This document shows positions 43,174-60,751 of a DNA stretch of 64,000 bases, piece after piece. Numbering within the stretch: position 1 is the stretch's first letter; each line of letters opens with the position of its first letter. The notes beneath the pieces are model-generated. The model was not told the origin of the DNA, did not search any database, and saw only the letters and a program-made list of their open reading frames with translations. The position numbers and the translations under genes were made by a program. Origin of the DNA: Candidatus Nanoarchaeia archaeon (lineage in GTDB: Archaea > Nanobdellota > Nanobdellia > Woesearchaeales > DATDXC01). The stretch lies in the NCBI GenBank assembly GCA_035289425.1, contig DATDXC010000002.1, positions 474 through 64,473 on the forward strand, given 5' to 3'.

Positions 43174-44261
43174 TACCCTTCAAACAAGATATCATTTCTG
43201 CCTTTTTTCAGCACAGTGCCAGAGCCATTCGAGACTTTGCCTACTGTTTTGGCTTCGCAGCCATATTTCTCTGCAATGGAGATAGCTGTATCAGCATCAG
43301 GTGTAATTATAAAGAACCCCATACCCATATTAAATTTTTGGTACATCTCCTTTTCGGAAAAGTTTGAATCCTCTTGCATGAGCCCGAATATCGGCTGTGG
43401 CTCCAGTGGATTGTCAATGATAAATCTAAAGCCTTTTACCCTGTTGAGATTCTTGAGCCCATAACCGGTATTATTCACTCCAATCATCTTGACTTTATTT
43501 GCAATGGCTGCAACAGCTTTGGTATATATCGCCGTAGGCTCCAACAATCTCTTTCCGATTGTTGACCCATCAAATTTTTCATCAAGTTTGTGTTTTCCTT
43601 TGTACATTCCTTTAAACTCTTTTCTTGTTTCAAATTCTCCTTTCAAAAGATTCAGTCGTAGATCGGTATACCCATTTGAATGAGGTCCCGAACTCCGTAA
43701 AGCCACAATCTTATCTTCAACCGAAATAGCAGCAGGTACATCACTTTTCTTGATAAAACCGATCATGCCGCCGGCAATATCAAACCCGTATCCGGGCTTG
43801 GCGCTCGAGATGAGTTCATCGACTGATGCGGTCTCTCCCTTACCGATATTGATATGGATAGAACTCCGTAATACATCTCCAGCATCGCATGCTTCAAGGC
43901 CTTTGACAATTCCCTTCATGAGCTCTCCGGTCAGTCCTCTTTCCTGGAGTTTGGATTGCACGGCAAAATAATCTATGAACAAGAATGGGCTTACTTTGCC
44001 CAAAGTCGCAAGATCGTTGGCAGACATCGCCACCAAATCAACACCTACAGTATCATACACATTCATTGCCTCGGCTAGTATGAGTTTTGTGCCAACACCA
44101 TCGATGGCGCATGCCAGATAATGCTTTGGAAACACTTCATCATTCTGAAATAATTCAGCAAATTTGCCTTCGGACAGCGGATGCATGTCTTTCTTTAGTT
44201 TCTGAGGGATAGCTTTTTTGATTGCTGCTACTGCATTGCTCTCTTTTTCTTGGTAATCCAT
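43170..44261 (-). CDS. purM: phosphoribosylformylglycinamidine cyclo-ligase (AIR synthase)
   Basis: Has 'AIDGVGTKLILAEA' and 'VGVDLVAMSANDLATLG', the PurM family motifs. The start is taken at Met22; the called ORF extends to 44324. Confidence 0.8.
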   Translation of the reverse strand: MDYQEKESNAVAAIKKAIPQKLKKDMHPLSEGKFAELFQNDEVFPKHYLACAIDGVGTKLILAEAMNVYDTVGVDLVAMSANDLATLGKVSPFLFIDYFAVQSKLQERGLTGELMKGIVKGLEACDAGDVLRSSIHINIGKGETASVDELISSAKPGYGFDIAGGMIGFIKKSDVPAAISVEDKIVALRSSGPHSNGYTDLRLNLLKGEFETRKEFKGMYKGKHKLDEKFDGSTIGKRLLEPTAIYTKAVAAIANKVKMIGVNNTGYGLKNLNRVKGFRFIIDNPLEPQPIFGLMQEDSNFSEKEMYQKFNMGMGFFIITPDADTAISIAEKYGCEAKTVGKVSNGSGTVLKKGRNDILFEGY

Positions 44262-44436
44262 AACACGTTTGTAATATATGTTGTTTATAAATATTCCGAT
44301 AACCAGAAAGTCAGTTTTGAACATCTCTAAGAAACTTAAAACTCGAAATTCGGATGGCTAACCTATTTGTTACACAAACCTTTTTCTTTGCCGCGGGGGG
44401 TATTAAGCATCCATCTGGCCCTATTTAATTCTGCTA

Positions 44437-46143
44437 CTAGGTAATCTTTAGTTCTTTCTTCCAAAAACTGCAGATCTTTTCAGCCTTTTTTGACGCAATG
44501 CCGGCATAGTTTTCAGGACTCTTGAGTATTTCAATCTGCTTTTTGCTGAACCGGGCAATATAAGGTTTTAATGAAGCATCCTTGAACAGCAATTCCCCAA
44601 AATGCTTTCCGGTTTGTTGGGACTTCAATGTCAATTCCCTCACAGCCTCATGTGCATCAGGATGATTGTGGGCTGCTAATAAGATATAGGCCGGTTCGGC
44701 AGTTATCATGTCTTTGTTCAGGTCAAAGTTTTTCTTCAGGTTGATTTTGTCAACAACCAACTTCGACATTGTCTTGTCAATTCGTATGATTGAGACAAAT
44801 AATCCGGCTAGTATTTCAGGTACAAATCTGGAAGTTGCCGAGTTTGTAAGATCTCTCTGATGTTCGCATATCTGATCCATGTACAAGGTTGACATCCTTG
44901 GCATGAATTCCTTCCACATCGATTTGACATTTTCAAAGTTTATGGGATTTCTCTTGTGCGGCATGGTGGATGATCCTACCTGCTGAGCCCCAAACGCCTC
45001 CGCAATCTCAGCTATCTCAGATCTTTGCAGATGCCTCATGTCATCAGCCAGATTTGCAATGACGCCAAAACAGGATGTTATTGCATGCATGAAGTCAGCC
45101 ATGTACTCTGCTTCCACAACCTGCGTTGAGATTGGAGAAGGTTTCAGCTTCAGTTCAGACAACACGAGCTTTTCAAATTCTTCGGGATCATCAAAAAATA
45201 AAGACGAAGCATTATAAGCGCCCACAGCGCCTGCCATCTTCCCTCTGAGGTCGTTAGCTGTTTTCTGGATAGCCTTGATCCTTGCTCCCAACCTTGATAC
45301 ATACTGTGCTATAGCAAACCCGAAAGTTATCGGCTCTGCATGCTGGCCGTGGGTCCTGCCTATCTGGAGAGTATCCTTTTCTCTCAGTGCCAGCCTGATC
45401 AGGGTATGCTCAAGCGCTGTTAATGCAGGAATCAACACAGTATTTGAGAAATCCTTGAATCGTGCCGCATCTGCAGTGCAGATGATGTCATGGGAGGTAG
45501 AAGTGAAATGCACATAGGGCTTTGCAGTATCTGAGACTTTCTTTCTGATGATGTTTGCCAACGCCCTGATATTATGTTTAATCCTGTCTTCCTCCAGGTA
45601 CACTTCCTGTGCAGAAACCTGTTTTGCCGCTGCAGCTACTTCATCAGCCGTGGACTTCCCACATATCTTTTTCTTGGCTAACGCAGATGTCAGGGCAGCT
45701 TCTGTCTTTGCCAAATATCTGATGAATCCTTCTTCTGATAAGTAGGGCCTTATCTTTGATCTAATTGCTTCATCCCTGCCGTAATACCTAAAGTCAAGCG
45801 GAGAAATTGTATCAAATAAGGGGATGGATTCAAAGATATCTGATTCTCCCATAGAAATCAGGGTTTCGATGTTGCGGAGCAATGCATTGCTTTTGTTCAG
45901 CTTGATTATCTTCCTGTTCTTATCCTGGGTTTCATGCACTAAATCATGCTTCTTGAACAATTGGATTGTTTGGTGAACCTTGGCAGGGCTTATCCTCAGT
46001 TTTTCTGCAATCTCCCGTAAGTGCAAAGATTCTCTTTCCAATAATCGCAGGATTTCAATATTTTTCTTGGTAAAAATTAATGATAGCTCCATCCGATGCA
46101 CCTCTCCAGGATAGATATGTTCATTATTTATAAACCTTTCCAT
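44437..46143 (-). CDS. purB: adenylosuccinate lyase with an N-terminal winged-HTH domain (in-frame fusion)
   Basis: Residues ~17-95 read 'NIEILRLLERESLHLREIAEKLRISPAKVHQTIQLFKKHDLVHETQDKNRKIIKLN', an ArsR/MarR-like wHTH. A PurB domain follows: 'ISPLDFRYYGRDEAIRSKIRPYLSEEGFIRYLAKTEAAL' (cf. E. coli 'VSPVDGRYGDK...'), 'GRTHGQHAEP' and 'GSSTMPHKRNPINFEN'. There is no stop between the two domains. Confidence 0.8.
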   Translation of the reverse strand: MERFINNEHIYPGEVHRMELSLIFTKKNIEILRLLERESLHLREIAEKLRISPAKVHQTIQLFKKHDLVHETQDKNRKIIKLNKSNALLRNIETLISMGESDIFESIPLFDTISPLDFRYYGRDEAIRSKIRPYLSEEGFIRYLAKTEAALTSALAKKKICGKSTADEVAAAAKQVSAQEVYLEEDRIKHNIRALANIIRKKVSDTAKPYVHFTSTSHDIICTADAARFKDFSNTVLIPALTALEHTLIRLALREKDTLQIGRTHGQHAEPITFGFAIAQYVSRLGARIKAIQKTANDLRGKMAGAVGAYNASSLFFDDPEEFEKLVLSELKLKPSPISTQVVEAEYMADFMHAITSCFGVIANLADDMRHLQRSEIAEIAEAFGAQQVGSSTMPHKRNPINFENVKSMWKEFMPRMSTLYMDQICEHQRDLTNSATSRFVPEILAGLFVSIIRIDKTMSKLVVDKINLKKNFDLNKDMITAEPAYILLAAHNHPDAHEAVRELTLKSQQTGKHFGELLFKDASLKPYIARFSKKQIEILKSPENYAGIASKKAEKICSFWKKELKIT

Positions 46144-46164
46144 AAAAATAAGAATAAATGTTCA

Positions 46165-46929
46165 TCATTTAATAACATTTAAGGCTTCGGCATGCACCCT
46201 TCCGTTAGACGCCATAAAATCTTTGGTGCCGGGCTTCCAGGGATTCCCTAAAAGATCAGTCACTATTCCGCCAGATTCAAGTAATATGAGGTACACAGCA
46301 GCATAATCCCAAACATTAACATCAAAGTCAATGTGCATCTCTGTCCTTCCTTCAGCAACAAGAAGCGTATCATATACCGCAACCCCAAAGACCCTATAAC
46401 GCCAGGCTTTGTGCGCCAGCTTTCCCATGATCCGAAGCTTTTTGTCTGTGTCATGACGAAACCGTGCGTCAAAAGTGAACATAGACTTATCAAGCCTATC
46501 GTTTTTATTTACATTGATTCTCTTCCCATTTCTAAAAGCTCCCTTTCCCTTCTCAGCTATGTACATCCTATCCAGACAGGGCAGGTACACCACACCAAGT
46601 ATAATCTCATCTTTGTGCTGCAGAGCAATCGAAACCCCAAACAGCGGGTTTTCAATGAGAAAATTATGAGTTCCATCCAAAGGATCTATAATCCAGGTAT
46701 ACTCTGAATTATTTTTGATTTGAGCTAATTCCTCATCAAGCATGTTATGGGTGGGAAACTTGCTAAGGATAATCTGGCGTATCTTTTTGATGCTTTCGAT
46801 GTCTGCCTGGGAAACATAACTGTCACCATCCTTGAGCCTCTTCGTAATCTTTCTTCCATAATACTTAAGAAGAATTCCACCAGCAGCCTTGGCTGCCCGG
46901 ATTGCCGTTTGTTTAAAGGTACCCTGCAT
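46165..46929 (-). CDS. suhB: inositol monophosphatase / archaeal FBPase-IMPase family protein
   Basis: Has 'WIIDPLDGTHNF' and 'WDYAAVYLILLESGG', the IMPase family motifs. Confidence 0.75.
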   Translation of the reverse strand: MQGTFKQTAIRAAKAAGGILLKYYGRKITKRLKDGDSYVSQADIESIKKIRQIILSKFPTHNMLDEELAQIKNNSEYTWIIDPLDGTHNFLIENPLFGVSIALQHKDEIILGVVYLPCLDRMYIAEKGKGAFRNGKRINVNKNDRLDKSMFTFDARFRHDTDKKLRIMGKLAHKAWRYRVFGVAVYDTLLVAEGRTEMHIDFDVNVWDYAAVYLILLESGGIVTDLLGNPWKPGTKDFMASNGRVHAEALNVIK

Positions 46930-47878
46930 CTTTTAGATTCCTCTGTATTCGCTGATGCACATCTCTTACCTCAGCTTCAAAAGTATTGCCGGTTATCATC
47001 TCATACATCTGGATATATCGCTTGCTCAATTCGGTTACTAGCTCTTGAGGGGCTTCCGGAAGTTTCTTATCTTTATAGGGATCGCAATGCTCCATGAACC
47101 AAAGACGGAGAAACTCTTTGTCGATATTCTCAGGCTCATTGCCTTTTGCAATCCTTTCTTGATAGCTATCTTTTATCCAGAATCTGGATGAATCAGGAGT
47201 ATGAATTTCATCTATCAGGTATATGTTGCCATCCTCATCATAACCAAATTCATATTTTGTGTCAACCAAAATGAGCCCATTTTCAGACGCAATCCGCGTT
47301 CCCCTTTCAAAAAGCCGCAATACCTTGTCTGACACAAAATCCCATTGCTCCTGCGTCATTAATCCTTTCTTTACAATCTCTTCGGCCGATATCTTTTCAT
47401 CATGGATCTCTGACTTGGTGGTAGGGGTGATGATGGGCTTTTCAAACCGCTGATTTTTCTTGAGGCCTTCAGGAAGCACATTGCCGCAGAATATCCGTTC
47501 ACCTTTCTCATAGGCGGTCCAGGCTGAAGTTGAAGTTACGCCAGTAATGTAGCCTCTGACCACAAATTCAACAGGGAACACTTTTAATCTCTTGCAGACT
47601 ACTACATTGGGATCTGGCACATCTATGACATGATTTTGGATAATATCCTGGGTGTTTTCAAACCAAAAGGCTGAAGTTTGGGTCAGAACCTGGCCCTTGA
47701 AAGGTATGGTAGCCAAATTCCTGTCAAAAGCAGACTGCCTGTCTGTTGAGATCAAGAACACCTTATCATCAGTTATGTAGACATCCCGCACTTTTCCTTT
47801 GTATTTCTTTCCGAGCTTGAAATCTGTTGATTTAAGGGTATGACTCATCTGTTTCTTGATATCCTCATCGGACATCAT
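46913..47878 (-). CDS. purC: phosphoribosylaminoimidazole-succinocarboxamide synthase (long form)
   Basis: Has 'GKVRDVY', 'LISTDRQSAFD' and 'LILVDTKYEFG', the SAICAR synthetase motifs. Length is 321 aa. Confidence 0.85.
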   Translation of the reverse strand: MMSDEDIKKQMSHTLKSTDFKLGKKYKGKVRDVYITDDKVFLISTDRQSAFDRNLATIPFKGQVLTQTSAFWFENTQDIIQNHVIDVPDPNVVVCKRLKVFPVEFVVRGYITGVTSTSAWTAYEKGERIFCGNVLPEGLKKNQRFEKPIITPTTKSEIHDEKISAEEIVKKGLMTQEQWDFVSDKVLRLFERGTRIASENGLILVDTKYEFGYDEDGNIYLIDEIHTPDSSRFWIKDSYQERIAKGNEPENIDKEFLRLWFMEHCDPYKDKKLPEAPQELVTELSKRYIQMYEMITGNTFEAEVRDVHQRIQRNLKDAGYL

Positions 47879-48648
47879 TTTTGAGCCTCCTTATCAGCTG
47901 CTAGCACTTCTTTCTTGCTTTCCTGTCTTAATTCCCAGAGTTTGTCAGTACAATCACCCAAAATTTCAGCAGCAGCTATCGCCGCATTCTCTCCTCGATT
48001 CAGTCCCACCCATAATCCATGGCTTGAATGCTCCAATATGTTCAATGCAGCTTCAGCAGTATCATCTTTTTTAGGCAGCAAGGGACAATAGATGACAAGC
48101 TCTTCTTTGGGGGCAAGAGGCTCATCAAAATAGGTGAATACTATGTTTATCGCATCATCAGCTGGTGCATCAGCATAGGTAAATTCAACGCCCAGTCTTT
48201 CCAATGTTGCAGCTGCTTTTTCAACTGCTTTTTCTCTCTTATCTCCAATGAGAATAATCCTAGACAGGCCTTTTCCCATGGCACTAGCTTGTTGTGCCGC
48301 AATCTCCGCCTGGTTGACGCCAACAGTCAGGACCGGAATTCCCGGAGGCATCTGCATGCAGCTCAACAATGCATCTAATCCAGAATAATTGTTATGGACC
48401 GGAACCCCAATGACTGGCTTAAGGGTCTTTGCAGCTATTACTCCAGGCAATGCTGCACTCAAACCTGCTCCTGCAATAACCACATCGAAATCATCTTTCT
48501 GGATTGCTTTATCCACTTCATCGGGAGTTCTATGGGCCGATAGCACTCTTAAATCAACCTGAACTTTGTGTCTTTTAAGTTCAGAAGCTATCTTTTTGTA
48601 CACGTCTGCATCTGATTTTGAACCAAACATGACTAATGCTTTCATCAT
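47875..48648 (-). CDS. purE: N5-carboxyaminoimidazole ribonucleotide mutase / AIR carboxylase with an internal ~95 aa insertion
   Basis: Has 'VMFGSKSD', 'SAHRTP', 'VVIAGAGLSAALPGVIAA' and 'PVIGVPV'. The C-terminal 'NAAIAAAEILG' is separated from the rest by a PurE-like partial repeat ('ILIGDKREKAVEKAAATLERLGVEF'). Confidence 0.75.
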   Translation of the reverse strand: MMKALVMFGSKSDADVYKKIASELKRHKVQVDLRVLSAHRTPDEVDKAIQKDDFDVVIAGAGLSAALPGVIAAKTLKPVIGVPVHNNYSGLDALLSCMQMPPGIPVLTVGVNQAEIAAQQASAMGKGLSRIILIGDKREKAVEKAAATLERLGVEFTYADAPADDAINIVFTYFDEPLAPKEELVIYCPLLPKKDDTAEAALNILEHSSHGLWVGLNRGENAAIAAAEILGDCTDKLWELRQESKKEVLAADKEAQK

Positions 48649-49079
48649 ATCACCTTCATTTCCTGATAATGCTCATTGTATAATAATTTTTTTGCTATTT
48701 CTTCAGCTTGTTGCCTATCGATGCCAAACAAAGCCCATACAATGCCTTTCTGCATTGATTTAATCTCCCTAAAACAAAGTCTGTTTTGCAGTATGGACAA
48801 CAGGCTTTGGCAGGTATCTCCTGAATCAGTGATAAGGAGGTATGCTGCAAACCGTTTTTTAAGCTCATTGGATGCTGTGTTCTTGTTCACATTTACCAAA
48901 ATATCAGTCTTATTGATTTTTTCTGCAAACTTTTTACCATCCCCTTCTATATCAAACCGGTAATAGATCAACCGCTCTAATCTGGTTACTTTATAACCAA
49001 TCTTCTCGATAGTATGCAAGGTGGTAATGGCTGTCGTATCAGGTATCTTCAGCCCCACAAACAATTCTACTATGCTCAT
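48645..49079 (-). CDS. purS: FGAM synthase PurS subunit (extended, 144 aa)
   Basis: The N-terminal ~75 aa 'VELFVGLKIPDTTAITTLHTIEKIGY' match PurS. A second half of similar size follows. Confidence 0.65.
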   Translation of the reverse strand: MSIVELFVGLKIPDTTAITTLHTIEKIGYKVTRLERLIYYRFDIEGDGKKFAEKINKTDILVNVNKNTASNELKKRFAAYLLITDSGDTCQSLLSILQNRLCFREIKSMQKGIVWALFGIDRQQAEEIAKKLLYNEHYQEMKVI

Positions 49080-49834
49080 TTTAGGTACTCCTTTATGCTC
49101 TCAAAAATCTTGATTCCTGGTCCTGGACCATCTCCCTCTTCATGATAGGTCGGAACCTGGCGCTGCCAGGTAGCCCTCTCAGGATGGGGCATCATGGCCA
49201 GCACATTCCCCTGTTTGTTGCAGATGCCTGCAATATTGATCATAGAGCCATTCGGGTTCACCGGAAATTTATCGATAATCTTTCCTGCAGCATCACAGTA
49301 CCTGAATAACAGTTGATCATGATCTATCAGTTCATTGACAAGGGCAGTATCTTTTGTTGTAAATCTTCCTTCACCATGCGCTACTGGTATCGAAAGCACT
49401 TCATCATCTTCCATGACTGAGTTGAAGGCAGTCTCTTTTTTAGAAGAATTCTTGATTTTAACCCAGGTGCAATAATATCCAGAGATGAATGGGTTGATGT
49501 TGGGGGCTAATGCCATCTGTGCCTGCTCAGCAAGAAGAGGGATGATGCCTGATTCCACCAATATCTGGCATCCATTGCATATACCCAGGACAACTTTGCC
49601 CTGCTCTGCACCTTCCCTTATAGCATCCAGTATCCTGTCCTTCGATGCTATGACGCCTGCGCGTATCCTATCTTCGTAACTCCATCCTCCGGGAAGTATA
49701 TAGCCTGCATAGGACTCAAGCTCCTTAGCATTCCACCTGATAACATCTGCTTTCAGGCCCGCTGCTTCGCAAGCCCTCTTTGTTTCCTGTTCGCAATTCG
49801 TTCCGGGGAAATAGATAACAGCAATTTTTGTCAT
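49076..49834 (-). CDS. purQ: FGAM synthase glutaminase subunit
   Basis: Has 'KIAVIYFPGTNCE', 'GICNGCQIL' and 'MMPHPER', the class I glutamine amidotransferase triad context. Confidence 0.9.
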   Translation of the reverse strand: MTKIAVIYFPGTNCEQETKRACEAAGLKADVIRWNAKELESYAGYILPGGWSYEDRIRAGVIASKDRILDAIREGAEQGKVVLGICNGCQILVESGIIPLLAEQAQMALAPNINPFISGYYCTWVKIKNSSKKETAFNSVMEDDEVLSIPVAHGEGRFTTKDTALVNELIDHDQLLFRYCDAAGKIIDKFPVNPNGSMINIAGICNKQGNVLAMMPHPERATWQRQVPTYHEEGDGPGPGIKIFESIKEYLK

Positions 49835-52168
49835 TTATTTCATTGCCTCAGGTATTCCCGATGTCCAAGCTTGTTTCAGCTCTTCTATTTTCAATTCAAT
49901 AAACTCCTTCCCATTCTTCTTTATTTTTAATTTTTTATCTTGAACTGTTTTCCCTAATTCAATAACCTTTAGATTATACTTATCACATAATTTCTGGACT
50001 GCATCTATATTCTTAGTCTCGAAGACAAATCCCGGAGATTCAGAGAATATCACTTTATCCGGACTTAATTTTGAGAAATCCAGGCTAATTTCAGCTCCAA
50101 TGGCTCCATCTGCTTCGCCGCCCAAAATCATTTCAGAGACGGTAGTTATCAATCCTCCATCTGAGATGTCATGGCAGCTCAATAATAATCCTTTTCCGAT
50201 CGAATCAATGATAGCATAGATTGCATTTTTTTCTTTTTCGAAGTCAATCTTCGGAACATTAGCCCCCAATTCGCCATGTACCTCATAGTAGACGCTTCCT
50301 CCTAATTCATCCTTTCGTTCTCCAATAAGGAACAAGGAGGAATCAGCTTTCTTGATCTGCATGGTGATGGCTTTAGTATAATCATCCATATATCCCAGAC
50401 AGGCAATGATGGGGCTTGGGTCAACCTGCTTTCCTTTGGCACTCTCGTTGTAGAAGCTGACATTGCCTGACACAAAAGGGACAGGGCTTTTCTTGTCACC
50501 CTTCCAGCAGAGCTTTCTAGCAGCATCTGAAATGCCTTTGACAGACTCCACAAAATCATTGAAAGCTTCAGGTACCTCGGGATTGCCGAAGTTTAGGCAG
50601 TCTGTCATGCCATAAGGCACTGCACCAACTGCTGCCACATTCCTCATCGCTTCTGCTACTGCATTGGCAGCTCCCCAATAAGGGTCAATCCGTGAATATT
50701 TTGGATTATGGTCAACAGACAATGCCAATGCTGCATTGCTTTCTGGAATAGGTGCTTGTATTCCGGCATCCGCCTCTCCTGGTCTGAACACAGCTAAGCC
50801 TTCAACTTCAGTATCATAATGTTTATAGACAAGAGCCTTTGAAGCCACATTAGGATGGCTTAGTATCTTCAATATTGTTTTTTTGTAATCAGGCTCTTTC
50901 AGATTCGGTTCTGTATACGTTCGTATCACTGCCTTGGCTTCTCTTGCATACCGTATGCCCTGAGTGAGGACATGGACAGGCACATTGCATACCCTTTTTC
51001 CCCTCTCTCGAATTATATAGTCAGTAGATTTGGTGACCGTGCCGATTACCGAAGCTCTTGCACCTTCTGCAACCATAGGGAGCTCAAAATCCTCATTATA
51101 GATCTTCAGAATTGTCGGCGTAAACTCTTCGGGGCTTATCCAGGTAAACCTCTCCTGAGTCTCTCCACAAGCTATGATATAAGGCGGGAGGCCCTGCATC
51201 GATACATGGATATTCTTTATCTCAATCTCAGCTCCGAATCCTCCAGAATCACACAGCTCTGAAGAAGCGCACATGATGCCTCCTGCCCCCATATCCTTAA
51301 ATCCTAAAGTTATACCCCTTTTTCTCGATTCTTCGAATACCGCATAAGTAGCCCTTAGCAAAACATTCTTTAGAAATGGGTCCGGAACCTGCACCGCTCC
51401 TTTATTGTACTCTTCCTCTTCTTCATTCAATACCAAAGAAGCGAAAGCAGCTCCTCCAAAACCTGAATTGTCAGTGGCTTTTCCCACAATCACAATATCA
51501 TATCCTTCTGCTGGTGCAGCTGAGTGGATTATGTCCTTTTCCTTGATAAGTCCTAAGCTTACTACATTTACCAGGCAATTTTCATCAAAGCTGTCATTAA
51601 AGTAGATATCTCCGGCAATGTTGGGTATGCCTAATGGGTTGCCATATCCTGCAATGCCTTCGACAACAGAATTGGCGATGTACTTGACATAATTCTTATT
51701 CTTTCCATGGGGGTTTCCAAACCGCAATGGATCTGCAGTGGCGATAACCTTGGCTCCCATGCAGGCAACATCTCTTATGATGCCTCCAATGCCAGTGGCA
51801 GCGCCCTCATATGGAACTACTTGGCTTGGGTGGTTGTGGGATTCATGACCGATAACAATGCCATACTGCTCCCCATTTACTTTGGCAAACTTGATGATAC
51901 CGGCATCTTCCTGCGGTCCCTGCATAACCGTAGGGCCAGTGGTAGGCAGTAATTTAAGAATTTCCTTGCTTGACTTATAGCTGCAATGCTCGCTCCATTG
52001 TATGTTGAACATATGCAGTTCAGTGAGTGTCGGATTTCTTCCTATAAGCTCAGCTATCTTCCTGCATTCAGACACCTTCAGCGCCAAAGAATTCTTTTTT
52101 ATGAAATCAGCTATATCTGCATCTGACTTAGAAGTAATCGGAATTGTCTCTATATCAACTTCCCCCAT
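49835..52168 (-). CDS. purL: FGAM synthase II (PurL)
   Basis: A 777 aa protein with the duplicated PurM-like domains of small PurL. It sits immediately upstream of purQ/purS. Confidence 0.9.
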   Translation of the reverse strand: MGEVDIETIPITSKSDADIADFIKKNSLALKVSECRKIAELIGRNPTLTELHMFNIQWSEHCSYKSSKEILKLLPTTGPTVMQGPQEDAGIIKFAKVNGEQYGIVIGHESHNHPSQVVPYEGAATGIGGIIRDVACMGAKVIATADPLRFGNPHGKNKNYVKYIANSVVEGIAGYGNPLGIPNIAGDIYFNDSFDENCLVNVVSLGLIKEKDIIHSAAPAEGYDIVIVGKATDNSGFGGAAFASLVLNEEEEEYNKGAVQVPDPFLKNVLLRATYAVFEESRKRGITLGFKDMGAGGIMCASSELCDSGGFGAEIEIKNIHVSMQGLPPYIIACGETQERFTWISPEEFTPTILKIYNEDFELPMVAEGARASVIGTVTKSTDYIIRERGKRVCNVPVHVLTQGIRYAREAKAVIRTYTEPNLKEPDYKKTILKILSHPNVASKALVYKHYDTEVEGLAVFRPGEADAGIQAPIPESNAALALSVDHNPKYSRIDPYWGAANAVAEAMRNVAAVGAVPYGMTDCLNFGNPEVPEAFNDFVESVKGISDAARKLCWKGDKKSPVPFVSGNVSFYNESAKGKQVDPSPIIACLGYMDDYTKAITMQIKKADSSLFLIGERKDELGGSVYYEVHGELGANVPKIDFEKEKNAIYAIIDSIGKGLLLSCHDISDGGLITTVSEMILGGEADGAIGAEISLDFSKLSPDKVIFSESPGFVFETKNIDAVQKLCDKYNLKVIELGKTVQDKKLKIKKNGKEFIELKIEELKQAWTSGIPEAMK

Positions 52169-53579: not shown

Positions 53580-53969
53580 ATGAATCCTACCAGAGAGGAC
53601 TATGTCAGGGCTATCTATATCTTGGGCAGCCGGCTGGACCGTGCAGTGCGGGAAGTGGACATAGCGCATCATTTGTCTCTGGCGAAATCTACGGTCTCAG
53701 AGAGAATTCACAAGCTGGAGATGCAGTCGATAGTTACTAAGAAATATGGCATAGGCCTCACCAAGAAAGGCAGGCTAATAGCTCAAAACCTGACAGAAAA
53801 ACACAGGCTTATTGAAGTGTTCCTCCATGATGTTTTAGGCTTGAGGCAATTCGAGATTCATAGTGAGGCTGACAAGCTCGAACATGCCTTCTCAGACAAA
53901 AGCATCAAGAAATTAAGAAGTTTTCTCAAAAATCCAAAATATTGTCCGCATGGTGAAAAGATAAGATGA
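53580..53969 (+). CDS. mntR: DtxR/MntR-family metal-dependent transcriptional repressor
   Basis: Has 'TREDYVRAIYIL', an HTH 'LSLAKSTVSERIHKLE' and 'HRLIEVFL'. It is followed by an Nramp transporter gene. Confidence 0.8.
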   Translation: MNPTREDYVRAIYILGSRLDRAVREVDIAHHLSLAKSTVSERIHKLEMQSIVTKKYGIGLTKKGRLIAQNLTEKHRLIEVFLHDVLGLRQFEIHSEADKLEHAFSDKSIKKLRSFLKNPKYCPHGEKIR

Positions 53970-55192
53970 AGCAATTTCTGAAGAGGCATGCAAAGCTATT
54001 GTCCTTTATGGGCTCAGGCCTGATAGTGAGTGTTGCTTACATAGATCCAGGAAACTGGGGAACAAACATAGGCGGTGGCTCAACCTTCAACTACGACCTT
54101 TTATGGGTTATTTGGATGGCATCTGGCATGGCCATGCTCTTTCAATATCTGTCAGGCAAGCTGGGGTTGGCAGGTCATTCACTCCCCGAACTGATCAAGG
54201 AAAAAGTAAGGAATAAAGCCTTAGTCATCGGTTATTGGCTACTGTCCGAGATAGCCATCTTAGCAACAGACCTTGCTGAATTCTTAGGCATAGTCGTCGC
54301 ATTACAATTGTTGTTTGGCATACCTCTCTTATGGGGAACTTACATAGCAATGGCAGATGTCCTCGTGATACTTTTCCTCATCAGAAAGCGATTTAGGGTA
54401 TTAGAACAGGCTTTTATTGGTTTTGTTGGTATTATAGGCCTTGGGTTCGTGTATGAAGTGTTTATATCAAAGCCTGATTTTACATCCATAGTTATACATT
54501 CAGTAACTCCCATACTTACACCTCAGAGCGCCCTGATAGCAGTGGGTATCATTGGTGCAACAGTCATGCCCCACGCATTGTTTATCCATTCATGGCTTAT
54601 AAAAAATAAGATGAAAGACCACACAGAACTGACAAAAAGCCAAGCCCTGCATTATCATAGGATCGATAATACCATTGCGCTTACTGTTGCAGGATGTATC
54701 AATGCTGCCATGTTGATAATGGCCGCAGCTGCTTTCTACAACGTAGGTGCAGTTGCGACTCTGGAAGGCGCCCATGCGACTTTAATACCTCTCTTTGGTA
54801 AGTTTGCTGCCTTAGTTTTTGCTCTTGCGCTGCTCTCTGCAGGTATCTCTTCATCAGTTACTGGTACCCTTGCGGGGCAGGCTGTTATGGATGGCCTTAC
54901 CGGATTCAGGATAAATATATGGGTTAGAAGGCTGATTACCCGGATCATAAACGTTATTCCTTTAACAATTGCAATATTGATGGGCATTGAACCTCTGCAA
55001 ATTCTGATCTGGAGCCAGACCGCCTTGAGTTTCCTTATTCCGCTTCCATTGATACCCATCATAATCTTTACTGCTAACAAAAACATAATGAAGGAACTGG
55101 TCAATAAGAAATTTACTACAATACTTGCTATACTCTTTGGAATGGTTATTCTTGGATTCAATGTATATCTGATATACTCCATGTTTGGATAG
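53966..55192 (+). CDS. mntH: Nramp-family divalent metal (Mn2+/Fe2+) transporter
   Basis: 'VAYIDPGNWGTNIGGGS' is the Nramp DPGN motif. A polytopic membrane topology is implied. Confidence 0.85.
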   Translation: MKQFLKRHAKLLSFMGSGLIVSVAYIDPGNWGTNIGGGSTFNYDLLWVIWMASGMAMLFQYLSGKLGLAGHSLPELIKEKVRNKALVIGYWLLSEIAILATDLAEFLGIVVALQLLFGIPLLWGTYIAMADVLVILFLIRKRFRVLEQAFIGFVGIIGLGFVYEVFISKPDFTSIVIHSVTPILTPQSALIAVGIIGATVMPHALFIHSWLIKNKMKDHTELTKSQALHYHRIDNTIALTVAGCINAAMLIMAAAAFYNVGAVATLEGAHATLIPLFGKFAALVFALALLSAGISSSVTGTLAGQAVMDGLTGFRINIWVRRLITRIINVIPLTIAILMGIEPLQILIWSQTALSFLIPLPLIPIIIFTANKNIMKELVNKKFTTILAILFGMVILGFNVYLIYSMFG

Positions 55193-55469: not shown

Positions 55470-58187
55470 ATGCAAGAGATGTATGTAATCAAACGAACAG
55501 GCGAATTGGTTCTTTTTGATGAATCTAGGATATCAAATGCCATACAAAAAGCAATTCGGGCAATCGGCACCAAGATCCCATCAGAAACTGTTGACAATAT
55601 AGTAAGCAACATAGTAGCTGAAATCAATGATCGATTTGTTGACTTCTATCCAAATGTCGAAAATATCCAGGACCTTGTTGAGAAGCACTTGGTGAAAAAT
55701 GGACTCTATGAGGTTTCCAAAGAGTATATCTTATATAGGGCTGAGAGGAAAAAAGCCCGCGACGAAAAAAGGAAGCAGGACATCGAGAAATCTTTATTGG
55801 GCAAGCTCAAGCTAAAGAAACGCGATGGAAGTACAGTCATCTTTGATCCGGCAAAACTTGAAAGGACCTTGCTGAGGGCTTCATCAGGCCTTGATATATC
55901 TGTCAGTCTGATTACTGCTGAAGTCATTAATAATATTTTTGATGGGATTTCTACTAAAGAACTTGAACAAGCGCTCATATTGGCTGCGACCGCATTTATC
56001 GAGAAAGATCCGGCATACAACTCTGTTGCAGGCAGGTTATTCTTGCAGCGTGTGTATAAAGAGGTTTTTGGTTTGTCTACCCAAGATCCAGAGTTACAGG
56101 GTGCATACACCACAGCCTTCAAAAAAACCATAAGAGAGGGCATCGCACAAAATCGTCTTGACCCCAAGATGAATGAATTTAATCTTGATACTCTTGCAAA
56201 GGCAATTGTCATAGACCGAGATAATCTGTTGCAGTATATAGGGATTCAGACCTTGTACGAACGCTACTTCCTCAGATGGGATAATCAAAGAAGGGAAACT
56301 CCCCAGATATTCTGGATGAGAGTTGCGATGGGATTGGCACTAAATGAGAAAGCGAAGGAAGAGAAAGCCATAGAGTTCTATAATGTGCTGTCAACACTCC
56401 GTTTTGTGTCTTCAACGCCAACCTTATTCCATTCGGGTACTACACACCCGCAGCTGAGCTCATGCTATCTAACTACAGTCATGGATGACCTGAAACATAT
56501 TTTCAAATGTTTGGGAGATAATGCCCAGCTGTCAAAATGGTCAGGCGGTTTAGGCAATGACTGGACAAACATACGGGCAACCGGCTCGTGGATCAAAGCC
56601 ACTAATGTAGAAAGCCAAGGTGTCGTGCCATTCCTTAAGATCGCCAATGATGTAACTGCGGCAATTAACCGAAGCGGCAAGCGAAGAGGCGCAACATGCG
56701 CCTATCTCGAGGCATGGCATATGGATATTGAGGATTTCCTTGATCTCAGGAAGAATACTGGAGATGAAAGGCGCCGCACCCACGACATGAATACTGCCCA
56801 TTGGATTCCTGATCTTTTCATGAAGAGGGTACTGGCAAATGAGGATTGGACTTTGTTTTCTCCTGATGACGTACCTGATCTGCACCACATCTATGGAAAG
56901 AAATTTGAGGAAAGATATACCGAGTATGAGCAAAAAGCAAAACAGGGAGTGATACGCCACTTCAAAGTTATACCCGCTATAAAATTGTGGAGGAAAATGC
57001 TTTCTATGCTATTTGAGACCGGGCACCCCTGGATAACATTCAAGGACCCATGCAACATCCGATCTCCCCAGGATCATGTTGGTGTGATCCACAGCTCAAA
57101 TCTATGTACTGAGATAACCTTGAACACTTCAGCTGATGAGACTGCAGTTTGCAATCTGGGGTCAATAAACCTTGAGAAGCACGTTACTGAAAAGGGAATT
57201 GATGAGGCTCTGTTAGCTTCTACAGTACATACTGCCATCACGATGCTGGATAATGTGATTGACATCAATTTTTATCCCACTGTTGAGGCGGAAAATTCCA
57301 ATAAGAAGCATAGGCCGATTGGTTTGGGGATTATGGGGGTGCAGGATGCGCTGTTCAGGCTAAATCTTCCCTTTGATGCTGAAGAGGCATTTGAGTTCTC
57401 TGATCGCATCATGGAGCTTATATCCTATCATGCTATAGCCGCATCATCTAACTTAGCTAAGGAGAAAGGTTCCTATGAATCATTCAAAGGTTCAAAATGG
57501 GACAGGGGAATATTCCCCCTGGATACATTGGATATCTTGGAGCAAGAAAGAGGCATGGAGATCCCTATCTCAAGGAAATCAACCTTGGATTGGGCTTCAC
57601 TGAAGAAAAAAGTCAGGATGCAGGGCATGCGCAACTCAAACACCATGGCTGTTGCGCCTACCGCAACCATCTCAACAATTGCAGGATGCTATCCATGCAT
57701 TGAGCCGATGTACAAAAACATCTATGTGAAATCAAACATGAGCGGAGAATTCACCATAATCAATTCCTATCTCATTGATGACCTGAGTAAGATGGGATTA
57801 TGGAATGATGAGATGCTTGAACAGCTGAAATATTATGACGGCAATATCTCCATGATAGCTGCCATACCTGATGAGCTGAAGGCAAAGTACAAGGAAAGTT
57901 TTGATATAGACCCATTAGCCTTGATCAAGCATACTGCGCTCCGGGGAAAATGGATCGACCAAAGCCAAAGCCACAACGTATTCATCAAAGGAACATCCGG
58001 TAGAGTATTAAGCGACGCATACCAGTATGCATGGCAGCTTGGCATGAAAACTACCTATTACATGAGAGCATTGGCGGCTACGCAGATTGAAAAGTCCACA
58101 CTGGACGCCAACAAATATGGGTATACCCAAAAAAGAGAGTACAAGCAAGGCCTTGAAGAATCCAAGGTGTGTGAAGCATGCCAATAA
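55470..58187 (+). CDS. nrdA: ribonucleoside-diphosphate reductase alpha subunit (class Ia) with an ATP-cone
   Basis: The N-terminal ATP-cone is 'VIKRTGELVLFDESRISNAIQKA'. The active-site region is 'NLCTEI', and the C-terminus is 'VCEACQ'. Length is 905 aa. Confidence 0.9.
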   Translation: MQEMYVIKRTGELVLFDESRISNAIQKAIRAIGTKIPSETVDNIVSNIVAEINDRFVDFYPNVENIQDLVEKHLVKNGLYEVSKEYILYRAERKKARDEKRKQDIEKSLLGKLKLKKRDGSTVIFDPAKLERTLLRASSGLDISVSLITAEVINNIFDGISTKELEQALILAATAFIEKDPAYNSVAGRLFLQRVYKEVFGLSTQDPELQGAYTTAFKKTIREGIAQNRLDPKMNEFNLDTLAKAIVIDRDNLLQYIGIQTLYERYFLRWDNQRRETPQIFWMRVAMGLALNEKAKEEKAIEFYNVLSTLRFVSSTPTLFHSGTTHPQLSSCYLTTVMDDLKHIFKCLGDNAQLSKWSGGLGNDWTNIRATGSWIKATNVESQGVVPFLKIANDVTAAINRSGKRRGATCAYLEAWHMDIEDFLDLRKNTGDERRRTHDMNTAHWIPDLFMKRVLANEDWTLFSPDDVPDLHHIYGKKFEERYTEYEQKAKQGVIRHFKVIPAIKLWRKMLSMLFETGHPWITFKDPCNIRSPQDHVGVIHSSNLCTEITLNTSADETAVCNLGSINLEKHVTEKGIDEALLASTVHTAITMLDNVIDINFYPTVEAENSNKKHRPIGLGIMGVQDALFRLNLPFDAEEAFEFSDRIMELISYHAIAASSNLAKEKGSYESFKGSKWDRGIFPLDTLDILEQERGMEIPISRKSTLDWASLKKKVRMQGMRNSNTMAVAPTATISTIAGCYPCIEPMYKNIYVKSNMSGEFTIINSYLIDDLSKMGLWNDEMLEQLKYYDGNISMIAAIPDELKAKYKESFDIDPLALIKHTALRGKWIDQSQSHNVFIKGTSGRVLSDAYQYAWQLGMKTTYYMRALAATQIEKSTLDANKYGYTQKREYKQGLEESKVCEACQ

Positions 58188-59173
58188 TTAACAGTTCAAA
58201 AACTGATCCGAACAAGATACTGCCCCTGACATATAAATGGGCACGCCAGCATTATAAGGATGGAGTGGCAAACAACTGGGTGCCGGAAGAAGTGGGGATG
58301 CAGAAAGATGTTGAGCAATGGAAATCAGATTCAGTCCTCTCTGAAACTGAACGCCGCCTTATAGTATGGAACTTAGGTTTTTTCTCAACTGCAGAATCAC
58401 TCACCGCCAACAATATTGTATTGGCAGTGTACTCCCATATAACCAATCCTGAGTGCAGGCAATATCTGCTCAGGCAGGCATTTGAGGAAGCAGTGCATAC
58501 AGACACATTCATCTATTGCTGTGACAGCCTGATGCTTGATCCTGAGGAAATCTACAACATGTATAAAACTATACCTTCCATCAAAGAAAAAGACGATTTT
58601 GTGGTAGAGCTGACCAAGTCAGTGTTCGACCGCAGTTTTACGACAGAGGGCCTTGAAAACGTCAGGAAATTCGTTCACGATCTGGTCGGCTACTATGTCA
58701 TTATGGAAGGGATCTTTTTCTATGCTGGCTTTGCCATGATGCTTGCCTTAAAGCGGCAGAACAAGATGGTAGGTGTCGGTGAACAATTTGAGTTTATCAT
58801 GCGGGATGAAAGCGTCCATCTTGCCTTTGGCTGTGATGTCATCAATACCGTAAAGAATGAAAATCCCGAGATCTGGACAGAAGCTTTCCAGCAGGAGCTG
58901 GTAGAGCTGATAAAGAAATCTGTCGACCTTGAGAAGACGTATGCTCACGATGCATGTCCCCAGGGCCTGCTCGGCATTAACGCTGACCAGTTTGCCAAAT
59001 ATGTGGAATACATTGCTGACCGACGCTTGGAACGCATAGGGCTGCCTAAGCTGTTTGGAACACCTAACCCGCTGCCCTGGATGTCCCAATCCACTGACCT
59101 CAGCAAAGAGAAGAACTTCTTCGAGACAAGAGTGACTGAATATCAGACATCAGGCAATCTCGACTGGGGTTAA
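58178..59173 (+). CDS. nrdB: ribonucleoside-diphosphate reductase beta subunit (R2)
   Basis: Has the di-iron ligand motifs 'EEAVHTDTF' and 'MRDESVHLAF'. Its start overlaps the end of nrdA. Confidence 0.85.
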   Translation: MPIINSSKTDPNKILPLTYKWARQHYKDGVANNWVPEEVGMQKDVEQWKSDSVLSETERRLIVWNLGFFSTAESLTANNIVLAVYSHITNPECRQYLLRQAFEEAVHTDTFIYCCDSLMLDPEEIYNMYKTIPSIKEKDDFVVELTKSVFDRSFTTEGLENVRKFVHDLVGYYVIMEGIFFYAGFAMMLALKRQNKMVGVGEQFEFIMRDESVHLAFGCDVINTVKNENPEIWTEAFQQELVELIKKSVDLEKTYAHDACPQGLLGINADQFAKYVEYIADRRLERIGLPKLFGTPNPLPWMSQSTDLSKEKNFFETRVTEYQTSGNLDWG

Positions 59174-59212
59174 AGGGATACCTTTTTATAGAAATAACAA
59201 ATTACTTTTCAT

Positions 59213-60247
59213 ATGATAATTGGTTTGACAGGGACCGTTGGAAGCGGAAAAAGCATCCTAGCAGGATTTCTTAGGGAAAAGGGATTTGTGTATCTTTCAT
59301 TGTCTGATGAGCTCAGGCAGATAGCCCATGAGATGAAAGTTGAGCCAAGCAGGAAAAGCCTTCAGGACCTTGGCAATAGTCTGAGGAAGAAGCGCGGCAA
59401 TGGATTTCTGGCAGAGATGGTACTCCGGAAAATAGTCGGGCAGGACTTGAAAAAGGCAGTGGTGGATGGCATACGGAATCCTGCGGAGATAGATATTCTG
59501 AAGGGGAATAAGGGTTTTGTGCTGGTGGGCATAGATGCATCCCAAAAAATACGGTTTGAGAGGGTGCGCAAGCGAAAGCGGCAGAGTGATCCTTCTTCTT
59601 GGAAAGATTTTCTGGCAATGGACGCCAGGGACAAAGGCAAGGGAGAGGGGAGGAGCGGCCAGCAGGTTTTAGCCTGCATCAGGAGAGCTGACTGTACTAT
59701 TTTTAACGAAGGATCCATAACACAACTTCAATCCAGGATTGAAAAACTCTATGACGATATTGACCGAAAAATGCCTCGGCCGAGCTGGGATGAATATTTT
59801 ATAGAAATCAGCAATGCAGTTTCCCGGAGGGCAACCTGCAATCGCGGTAGATCAGGATGCGTAGTTGTTAAGAATAAGCATATCCTAGTAACTGGTTATG
59901 TCGGAAGCCCGCTTGGATTGCCGCATTGTGATGAAGTAGGCCACCAGATGAAGACAGTTGTTCATGAAGATGGAACTAAGACGCAACATTGCCTGCGCAC
60001 AACCCACGCTGAACAAAATGCTATCTGCCAGGCAGCCAAGCTGGGAGTGAGCCTGGATGGGGCAACACTGTATTGTAAGATGACTCCCTGCGCAACCTGT
60101 GCCAAGCTGATCATCAATGCAGGGATAAAACGCGTTGTTGCGCAGCACCGTTATCATGCAGGTTCTGAAACCGAAAAGATGTTTAAGCAGGCAGGCATTA
60201 AGCTAGATATGCTGAATAATGAAGTGTTGGAATACGGTCAGCAATAA
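59213..60247 (+). CDS. bifunctional P-loop nucleotide kinase-like domain / dCMP deaminase fusion protein
   Basis: The N-terminal Walker A is 'IIGLTGTVGSGKS' (a CoaE/dNMP-kinase-like fold, with 'GIRNPAEIDIL'). The C-terminal CMP/dCMP deaminase zinc-binding motifs are 'HAEQNAI' and 'PCATCAKLIINAGIKRVV'. Confidence 0.7.
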   Translation: MIIGLTGTVGSGKSILAGFLREKGFVYLSLSDELRQIAHEMKVEPSRKSLQDLGNSLRKKRGNGFLAEMVLRKIVGQDLKKAVVDGIRNPAEIDILKGNKGFVLVGIDASQKIRFERVRKRKRQSDPSSWKDFLAMDARDKGKGEGRSGQQVLACIRRADCTIFNEGSITQLQSRIEKLYDDIDRKMPRPSWDEYFIEISNAVSRRATCNRGRSGCVVVKNKHILVTGYVGSPLGLPHCDEVGHQMKTVVHEDGTKTQHCLRTTHAEQNAICQAAKLGVSLDGATLYCKMTPCATCAKLIINAGIKRVVAQHRYHAGSETEKMFKQAGIKLDMLNNEVLEYGQQ

Positions 60248-60271: not shown

Positions 60272-60751
60272 ATGTTCTCTATAACCTCTATGGATAAAGC
60301 CATTTTTGCAGCAGGCTGTTTCTGGCATGTAGAACACACATTTAACACAACTCCCGGTGTCATAGAAGCGATTTCCGGATACACTGGTGGAAAATTCAAG
60401 AACCCATCTTATGAAGATGTATGCACTGGAAGTACTGGTCATGCAGAAGCTGTCCAGGTTACCTTTGATTCTAAAAAAATATCCTTTGAGAAATTGCTGG
60501 ATATCTTCTGGAAACTCCATGACCCTACCACCCTAGATAGACAGGGCCCGGACATAGGTTCCCAGTACAGGTCTGCCATCTTCTTTGTTTCAGAAAAGCA
60601 GAAAGCACTGGCAGAGAAATCAAAGCAGGAATATCAAAAGAGATTGCAGAAGCCCATCGTTACTGAAATTACCAAAGCATCAACGTTTTACCCTGCAGAA
60701 GAATACCATCAAAGGTATTATGAAAAGCATAAGGTATTCAAGTGCGGTTAG
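60272..60751 (+). CDS. msrA: peptide methionine sulfoxide reductase MsrA
   Basis: 'AIFAAGCFWHVEHTF' (GCFWG-type active site) and 'YHQRYYEK' are present. Confidence 0.9.
   Translation: MFSITSMDKAIFAAGCFWHVEHTFNTTPGVIEAISGYTGGKFKNPSYEDVCTGSTGHAEAVQVTFDSKKISFEKLLDIFWKLHDPTTLDRQGPDIGSQYRSAIFFVSEKQKALAEKSKQEYQKRLQKPIVTEITKASTFYPAEEYHQRYYEKHKVFKCG

Follow-up and report, generated by a model that had tools for sequence, protein, structure and literature searches.

A kinase–dCMP deaminase fusion encoded downstream of ribonucleotide reductase genes in an archaeal genome, a probable housekeeping homologue of anti-phage dCTP deaminases

We analysed a 64,000 nt stretch of DNA from an archaeon catalogued as Candidatus Nanoarchaeia (contig DATDXC010000002.1, positions 474 to 64,473 of the forward strand; hereafter the window), and focus on a gene that joins a P-loop kinase domain to a deoxycytidine monophosphate (dCMP) deaminase domain. 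The gene occupies 59213..60247 on the + strand, stop codon included, and both the list of open reading frames (ORFs) and the raw sequence show one ORF of 344 aa that begins with ATG and is uninterrupted by stops. It lies downstream of two ribonucleotide reductase (RNR) genes on the same strand: nrdA (55470..58187, +; 905 aa, with two ATP-cone matches in Pfam) overlaps nrdB (58178..59173, +; 331 aa), and 39 nt separate nrdB from the fusion gene. This A/T-rich spacer (59174..59212, +) carries TTTTATAG about 22–29 nt 5′ of the ATG, which might be read as an archaeal TATA-like element. A sequence-only reading had placed a two-domain protein in this position, and that observation stands: each motif that it cited occurs in the translation (IIGLTGTVGSGKS at aa 2–14, HAEQNAI at aa 265–271 and PCATCAKLI at aa 292–300), and Pfam detects both a complete zinc-dependent deaminase domain (dCMP_cyt_deam_1, aa 191–310, 84 bits, cutoff 25) and, at aa 3–130, the P-loop models AAA_18 (36.5 bits) and AAA_17 (32.1 bits), both above cutoff. 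The AlphaFold2 (AF2) model of the protein has a mean pLDDT (predicted local distance difference test score) of 90.7 and a pTM (predicted template modelling score) of 0.70. The interpretation offered in that reading is only partly supported, as set out below.

A P-loop kinase followed by a deoxycytidylate deaminase is a published architecture, that of the anti-phage deoxycytidine triphosphate (dCTP) deaminases DcdV/AvcD, in which both domains are required (Severin/Hsueh et al.; Tal et al.) and whose authors had noted ‘a few homologs in archaea’. The novelty that the sequence-only reading implied for the fusion consequently fails, and PADLOC and NCBIfam detect the homology. The family described here is a separate variant of this known architecture, widespread and as yet uncharacterised by experiment; we found no description of a housekeeping kinase–deaminase branch in the searchable literature.

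The C-terminal domain (aa 189–344; 59777..60244, +; PF00383, 84 bits) belongs to the ComEB/DCTD clade of dCMP deaminases and is of the two-zinc type. The ComEB model TIGR02571 scores 110–114 bits (113.6 for the domain alone) against an equivalog cutoff of 219, phrog_174 (dCMP deaminase) matches with E=1.4e-42, and the domain is 43–49% identical to dCMP deaminases of Firmicutes and phages. Among solved structures the S. mutans dCMP deaminase is the best match (2hvv; E=3e-28 with the single sequence, 1.7e-37 with a profile), and the AF2 model superposes on the S. mutans structure 2hvw with a Foldseek template modelling (TM) score of 0.86. Iyer et al. (PMC3239186) defined the dCMP deaminase clade by HxE, PCxxC, NA after HxE, a Tyr, a Cys/His structural-zinc set and NxxP, and all but the last of these are present in the fusion. 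The catalytic H265-A-E267, comprising zinc ligand and proton shuttle (60005..60013, +), and the zinc-binding P292-C293-A-T-C296 (60086..60100, +) are invariant in 114 fusion sequences. The clade-specific N269-A270 that follows HAE, and Y314 between strand 4 and helix 4, are 99–100% conserved, as are C209 of the structural-zinc set and the five residues of the structural-zinc insert H238-C239...H244...H259-C260 (59924..59992, +). It is therefore with high confidence that we take the deaminase to act on deoxycytidine nucleotides.

The domain departs from canonical enzymes at the allosteric site. The motif that binds dCTP and dTTP is normally G(Y/W)N(A/G) (PMC12088426); the S. mutans, T4 and S-TIM5 deaminases have GYNG or GWNG at this position. 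The window protein reads GYVGSP, with G228-Y-V230-G231 (59894..59905, +) replacing Asn by Val, and among the 114 fusions position 230 is Val in 94%, Ala in 6% and never Asn, so that the allosteric G(Y/W)N(A/G)/NxxP element is absent from the family. Two basic residues are also family-specific: position 213 (R213; 59849-59851) is R or K in 99% of sequences and position 289 (K289; 60077-60079) is K or R in 91%; in the canonical enzymes the residues are Tyr and Thr, respectively. The basic residues could contact phosphates beyond the first, were the substrate a di- or triphosphate. The fusion thus resembles the canonical enzymes (S. mutans 2hvv/2hvw, B. subtilis ComEB, T4 Cd 1vq2 and human DCTD 2w4l) in fold, HxE, PCxxC, NA, structural zinc and Tyr, and presumably in the reaction, dCMP to deoxyuridine monophosphate (dUMP), but differs from them in the 186-aa kinase domain, the Val/Ala in place of the allosteric Asn and the basic residues at 213 and 289. 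The dCTP-acting zinc deaminases PBCV-1 bi-DCD (7fh4) and vertebrate CDADC1 (9hfq) have the same deaminase fold and show that DCTD-like enzymes can take di- and triphosphates; they have no kinase domain, and are less similar to the fusion than the monophosphate-specific enzymes are.

The N-terminal domain (aa 1–186; 59213..59770, +) resembles (deoxy)nucleoside monophosphate ((d)NMP) kinases. Its Walker A motif, G4-LTGTVGSGK13-S14 (59222..59254, +), is a canonical GxxxxGK (G7-x4-G12-K13) in which the residue after GK is Ser in the window protein and Gly in 108 of 120 homologues. A putative NMP-phosphate-binding Arg lies in D85-G-I-R88-N-P-A-E92 (59465..59488, +), a motif that we equate with the DGFPR motif of adenylate kinase, and an Arg-rich, lid-like segment follows at R114-FE-R117-VRK-R121-KRQSD126 (59552..59590, +). 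We assign roles to these residues by analogy with adenylate kinase, and they should be read as provisional. The sequence-only reading had named a degenerate P-loop as the outcome that would undo it, and the domain proves not to be degenerate: in 56 aligned fusions G4, T6, G7, G12, K13, R88, E92, R114 and R121 are invariant, and R117 and D126 are conserved at 90% or more. Across the 114 fusions the values are 92% for R35, 99% for R88, 99% for R114, 97% for R117 and 100% for R121. In 232 free-standing kinases R88 and E92 are 99–100% conserved, and K13, R35, R58, R88, E92, R114, R117, R121, D126 and N165 are equally conserved in the two sets. Two defensive homologues, in contrast, have the non-canonical P-loops GAVGTELT and GAIGSGIKT, Lys in place of the invariant R88, and neither R117 nor R121, and the AAA_17 and AAA_18 models match the fusion family but not the defensive N-terminal domains.

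The closest relatives of this domain in sequence and fold are the SSO1041/UPF0200/PRK08356 proteins (PDB 3lw7 and 3h0k), which have the motif set in common but, unlike the fusion, are free-standing and functionally uncharacterised. The best Foldseek match is AMP-bound SSO1041 (3lw7), aligned end to end with a TM score of 0.90 and a root-mean-square deviation of 2.2 Å; the sequence match to SSO1041/UPF0200 has E=1e-13 with the single sequence and 4e-27 with a profile, and the PRK08356 match reaches 84.5 bits against the NF006226 cutoff of 189. In our motif alignment the first residue and the last three residues of SSO1041, which play no part in the motif comparison, are approximate. The phage dNMP kinases of PHROG 139 match the whole domain: for phrog_139, E is 1.3e-11 with the window protein, every one of the 56 aligned members is hit, and the lowest E among them is 9e-20. 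This similarity is remote, so substrate range is not transferable from it, and the fusion has no phage context. From these matches and the intact motifs, the N-terminal domain is probably a catalytically competent NMP-kinase-type phosphotransferase of the SSO1041/UPF0200 and phage dNMP kinase family.

Searching with aa 1–186 returned 2,122 representative clusters at E<=1e-10, the best 150 of which are mostly free-standing proteins of ~180–200 aa with 40–48% identity. The same module (E<=1e-29 to the window N-terminal domain) is fused elsewhere to dUTPase (P0124) and a DCD-type dCTP deaminase (P0256), to cytidylate kinase (P0203), adenylate kinase (P0219) and a methyltransferase (P0178), and to a second copy of itself (P0134 and P0254). 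Free-standing copies adjoin dUTPase or DCD-type genes at six loci (L102, L151, L152, L154, L162 and L168) and an RNR gene at a seventh (L174). The common denominator of these partners is enzymes that make dUMP or handle deoxycytidine or deoxyuridine nucleotides, and the kinase family is a large orphan group tied to deoxypyrimidine metabolism.

The fusion itself is widespread. A search of 5.8 billion proteins gave 1,963 homologues; the 120 listed are 313–432 aa long (most ~340–350 aa) with 50–65% identity, nearly all cover 99–100% of the query, and those with names come from Pacearchaeota, Woesearchaeota and Nanoarchaeota. These numbers led us to reject a chance ORF or frameshift artefact. When GTDB was scanned with a single genome for each species, at least 578 species genomes of DPANN archaea and Bacteroidota proved to encode the fusion; the best 80 of these comprise 16 archaeal genomes (15 DPANN or ‘uncultured archaeon’ and one ‘Methanosarcinales’) and 64 bacterial ones, almost all Bacteroidota, with 41–58% identity. 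The sequence-only reading had also allowed that two genes might have been joined by a sequencing frameshift. This is not so: the fusion is one unbroken ORF in 75 of 90 fetched loci, and in the other 15, all from Bacteroidota, the kinase gene has a proper stop and is followed, after a spacer of ~10–110 nt, by an ATG-started deaminase gene of ~165 aa. A further unfused pair, with overlapping genes, lies on a bacterial contig of 833 kb (L096). Because the two domains occur either in a single ORF or as immediate neighbours, their pairing is ancient and selected, whether fused or not, and we regard it as obligatory.

Several relatives extend or vary this architecture. One family member (P0070, 432 aa) has a partial NUDIX match at its C-terminus (residues 376–426), which may represent read-through or a true triple fusion; at another locus (L006) the gene 3′ of the fusion encodes a dUTPase–NUDIX fusion. 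A ‘dCMP deaminase’ of Pseudomonas phage PMBT14 (BFVD A0A2I6PI80, 319 aa) aligns along the full model length, and a human-gut phage contig (MT838710.1, 835-2007; H26) encodes a full-length homologue with 26% identity. Phages may also carry kinase–deaminase fusions.

The genomic context points to deoxynucleotide supply, as the sequence-only reading had proposed for the window alone. In 12 of 23 distinct archaeal contexts an RNR gene lies within ~2 kb upstream of the fusion: class I in the window and L021, class II in L003 and L010 and likely also in L008 (where it has a TSCPD domain), class III NrdDG in L004, L015, L047 and L087, and an RNR counted without class in L006, L014 and L067. Since this linkage spans three unrelated RNR classes, the function of the fusion is presumably tied to the products of RNR rather than to one enzyme. 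Three more of the 23 contexts have Tmk or ThyA close to the fusion, and NrdR, Tmk, ThyA or ThyX, dihydrofolate reductase, dUTPase and thioredoxin recur in the archaeal clusters. In L047 the order is nrdD-nrdG-fusion-dut-trx, with a 4-nt overlap. An independent metagenome scan found RNR, NrdG or NrdR at 18 of 34 fused loci. In the 64 bacterial loci the upstream neighbour is PurE in 18 and a LOG-family (Lysine_decarbox) gene in 16, a context that likewise favours housekeeping.

We are confident that the role of the fusion is a housekeeping one. On balance we also favour a more definite account, in which the fusion is an enzyme of deoxypyrimidine metabolism that supplies dUMP, the substrate of thymidylate synthase, through a kinase coupled to the deaminase. 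Class I and II RNRs deliver deoxycytidine diphosphate (dCDP), whereas dCMP is what the deaminase requires, and the reactions of NMP kinases run freely in both directions. On this account the kinase domain would interconvert deoxypyrimidine di- and monophosphates (dCDP + ADP <-> dCMP + ATP), and perhaps also deoxyuridine diphosphate (dUDP) and dUMP, so that the RNR product dCDP would become the deaminase substrate dCMP. Co-expressed with RNR, the fusion would make dUMP in its deaminase domain, and the deamination, being irreversible, would draw the kinase reaction, itself near equilibrium, toward dUMP, ThyA/ThyX and Tmk, along the pathway CDP -> dCDP -> dCMP -> dUMP -> dTMP -> dTDP. That dCDP and dCMP are the pair concerned, and that the reaction runs in this direction, we put forward tentatively. 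A dUDP reaction would explain the Dut and DCD partnerships as parallel routes to dUMP, and the loss of the allosteric Asn (GYVG) suggests that the kinase domain may have taken over part of the regulation of the deaminase. The sequence-only reading had pictured dCMP being deaminated and phosphorylated by a single polypeptide; a forward dCMP or dUMP kinase would make little sense in the pathway.

Several observations weigh against this account. Class III RNRs make deoxynucleoside triphosphates (dNTPs) rather than diphosphates, which weakens the dCDP argument at NrdDG-linked loci. The fusion of the kinase module to Cmk (P0203) disfavours a plain CMP/dCMP-kinase specificity. DcdV/AvcD needs both of its domains to deaminate dCTP and dCMP, so a non-catalytic, activating kinase-like domain has a precedent. 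None of the 64 bacterial loci shows linkage to RNR or thymidylate genes. The sequence-only reading had suggested looking for thyA or thyX, and the 64-kb window contains neither, nor tmk or dut. Literature searches found no biochemistry on the short family, whichever member is considered, nor on SSO1041/UPF0200.

The precedent set by DcdV/AvcD bears on a first alternative, which retains a housekeeping dCMP/dCTP deaminase and makes the kinase-like domain a nucleotide sensor or activator (for ATP, dCTP or dTTP) that switches the deaminase in place of the inter-subunit allosteric site. The motif GY(V/A)G throughout the family would suit such a replacement, P-loop mutations in DcdV/AvcD abolish deamination, and CDADC1 shows that canonical allostery can become dispensable once a further domain is fused (PMC12088426). 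The module is moreover fused to enzymes that produce deoxyuridine nucleotides by different catalysis, namely dCMP deaminase, DCD and dUTPase. However, the fusions keep all the catalytic and lid residues of NMP kinases as strongly as the abundant free-standing proteins of ~185 aa do, the defensive proteins, which would be the likeliest sensors, have lost exactly those residues, and split two-gene forms occur. We regard a sensor as a serious but rather unlikely reading.

Less probable, and in our judgement unlikely, is a salvage enzyme whose N-terminal domain is a deoxycytidine or deoxynucleoside kinase, or a forward dNMP kinase, acting in the order deoxycytidine -> dCMP -> dUMP, or splitting dCMP between dCDP and dUMP. 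The domain order would then equal the reaction order, DPANN archaea are often dependent on salvage, the domain is homologous to phage dNMP kinases, and the LOG-family neighbour in Bacteroidota is a nucleotide nucleosidase. Against this, the deoxynucleoside kinase family PF01712 was not matched in the Pfam search of the fusion protein, R35 and R88 would be typical of NMP kinases that bind a monophosphate, and the archaeal linkage is tight to de novo RNR operons and not to transporters or nucleosidases. The window archaeon also has de novo purine synthesis genes.

An anti-phage dCTP deaminase that depletes dCTP on viral infection is a further alternative, which we consider very improbable here. 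The two domains stand in the same order as in DcdV/AvcD with homology across both, the kinase-like domains have the motifs LQDLGNxLR, GQQV and AD..I.N in common, the PADLOC dCTPase model matches both domains in order (E=1e-50), and the top NCBIfam match is NF041025, ‘anti-phage dCTP deaminase’. That match, however, reaches 133.4 bits against a cutoff of 400, and identity to annotated anti-phage proteins encoded on plasmids, one from Vibrio and one from E. coli, is ~25%. The fusion is ~160 aa shorter than DcdV/AvcD, and retains the canonical Walker A, the lid arginines and the structural-zinc insert, all three of which the defensive proteins are without; in place of the insert the two defensive homologues have an insertion of ~60–70 aa. 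Tal et al. delimited the defence family by a size of >350 aa and a defence score of >0.33; the window protein has 344 aa, and we saw no defence genes in any fusion context examined. Whilst DcdV/AvcD is found in islands or on plasmids, the fusion occupies a housekeeping RNR/thymidylate operon and has housekeeping operon partners in more than 30 loci. The inhibitory small RNA (sRNA) AvcI/DifV is encoded directly 5′ of dcdV/avcD, and DifV is 174 nt long; with no more than 39 nt between the stop of nrdB and the fusion ATG, there is no room for an sRNA of this type, none was found 5′ of the fusion, and the window has no Rfam hits. On these grounds we reject membership of the defence family; judged from its sequence, the window protein is a separate branch from DcdV/AvcD.

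The sequence-only reading had left the kinase-like domain between a dNMP kinase and a dephospho-CoA kinase (CoaE), and a CoaE fortuitously joined to a deaminase is now extremely unlikely: some sources label homologues ‘dephospho-CoA kinase’ and CoaE structures are among the fold matches (TM ~0.6), but the CoaE models stay below cutoff and cover the P-loop half only (PF01121, 25.1 bits against 27, aa 1–91; TIGR00152, 17.7–19.8 against 65.55), the position of the CoaE substrate Asp (D32) varies, with Gly in the split forms, and the association with deoxynucleotide genes is consistent.

The remaining features of the window concern the neighbours of the fusion. The adjacent RNR had been called class Ia, which is wrong. 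The best solved matches of NrdB are 1syy, 4d8f and 2ani (E ~1e-140, 7.5e-141 for 1syy; ~67% identity over the full length), which we take to be the class Ic (Mn/Fe) R2 of Chlamydia trachomatis; in NrdB, Phe stands at the site of the radical Tyr (EEAVHTDTF), and the first metal-ligand motif contains Glu (STAESL). Directly 5′ of nrdA, at 53580-55192, are genes for a DtxR/MntR-like repressor and an Nramp/MntH manganese transporter. Together, the match, these residues and the upstream MntR/MntH-like genes indicate a class Ic-like RNR with linked manganese uptake.

Downstream, msrA (60272..60751, +; PF01625, E=2e-65), for peptide methionine sulfoxide reductase, a thioredoxin-dependent enzyme, begins 24 nt 3′ of the fusion stop. 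In relatives this slot is usually filled by thioredoxin or dUTPase, with thioredoxin directly 3′ of the fusion in L003 (11086-11412), L010 (5392-5718), L098, L101, L117, L119, L125, L129, L130 and L132. Around the fusion the window encodes RNR, MsrA, DUF357, chorismate mutase, Cbf5 and ribosomal proteins, and its content (L31e, S19e, Cbf5, subunits of an A-type ATPase and the purine cluster) is archaeal. A scan for bacterial-type signals (sigma-70 promoters and intrinsic terminators) detected nothing resembling a terminator from nrdA to the fusion on the + strand; as the host is archaeal, a scan of this type is uninformative here. The tRNA scan of the window was empty, as was the Rfam scan. 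The GC (guanine plus cytosine) content of the fusion gene, 0.475, resembles that of nrdB (0.459) and cbf5 (0.447), and we rejected a foreign-island origin on this basis.

The de novo purine cluster lies at 43170-52168 on the - strand and encodes PurL, a PurQ-like glutamine amidotransferase, a 143-aa ORF that Pfam does not match, PurE, PurC, an inositol-monophosphatase-family protein, PurB and a PurM-like AIRS protein. Many DPANN archaea are without purine synthesis, and the cluster is worth noting if the host belongs to this group. Beside it, a 336-aa ORF (42163-43173) has as its sole Pfam match a MazE/AbrB-type antitoxin-like domain at its N-terminus (aa 12–50). Two observations concern other fusion loci. 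The NrdD of L047 (3513-8531) has 1,672 aa, whereas that of L004 has 727 aa, and contains two long intein-like internal insertions. Genes with Sigma70 region 2/3/4 domains lie beside archaeal markers (Rpr2, PolB and Fen1) at 12972-13799 in L008 and 10676-11761 in L094, on contigs labelled Woesearchaeota/Pacearchaeota, and could reflect horizontal transfer or mis-binning.

A broader proposal can be framed from these data, although we think it doubtful as a whole. The short family would be a metabolic relative, and possibly the source, of the anti-phage dCTP deaminases, which would have arisen by degeneration of the kinase site and an insertion in the deaminase. The kinase would run RNR-made dCDP (and dUDP) to dCMP (and dUMP), a step that has gone unrecognised, giving DPANN archaea, Bacteroidota and other lineages a route free of dUTP, CDP -> dCDP -> dCMP -> dUMP, and the UPF0200/SSO1041 proteins a function.

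Outside phage T4, the origin of dCMP from RNR products is poorly defined in cells that rely on dCMP deaminase. The kinase module described here, which recurs in fusion with or next to dCMP deaminase, DCD, dUTPase and RNR, offers a candidate for the link from dCDP to dCMP that can be tested and, if this is true, would provide a function for thousands of proteins now annotated as orphan ‘AAA family ATPase’ or ‘dephospho-CoA kinase’. For genome annotation, the fusion family is a likely class of false positives: domain-based defence finders hit this housekeeping family strongly, as in the PADLOC match described above, and short homologues in RNR operons should therefore not be called defence systems. 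The family is also the natural comparison for DcdV/AvcD. That the housekeeping form keeps the kinase catalytic residues whereas the defensive form has lost them suggests the repurposing of a metabolic enzyme as an immune effector.

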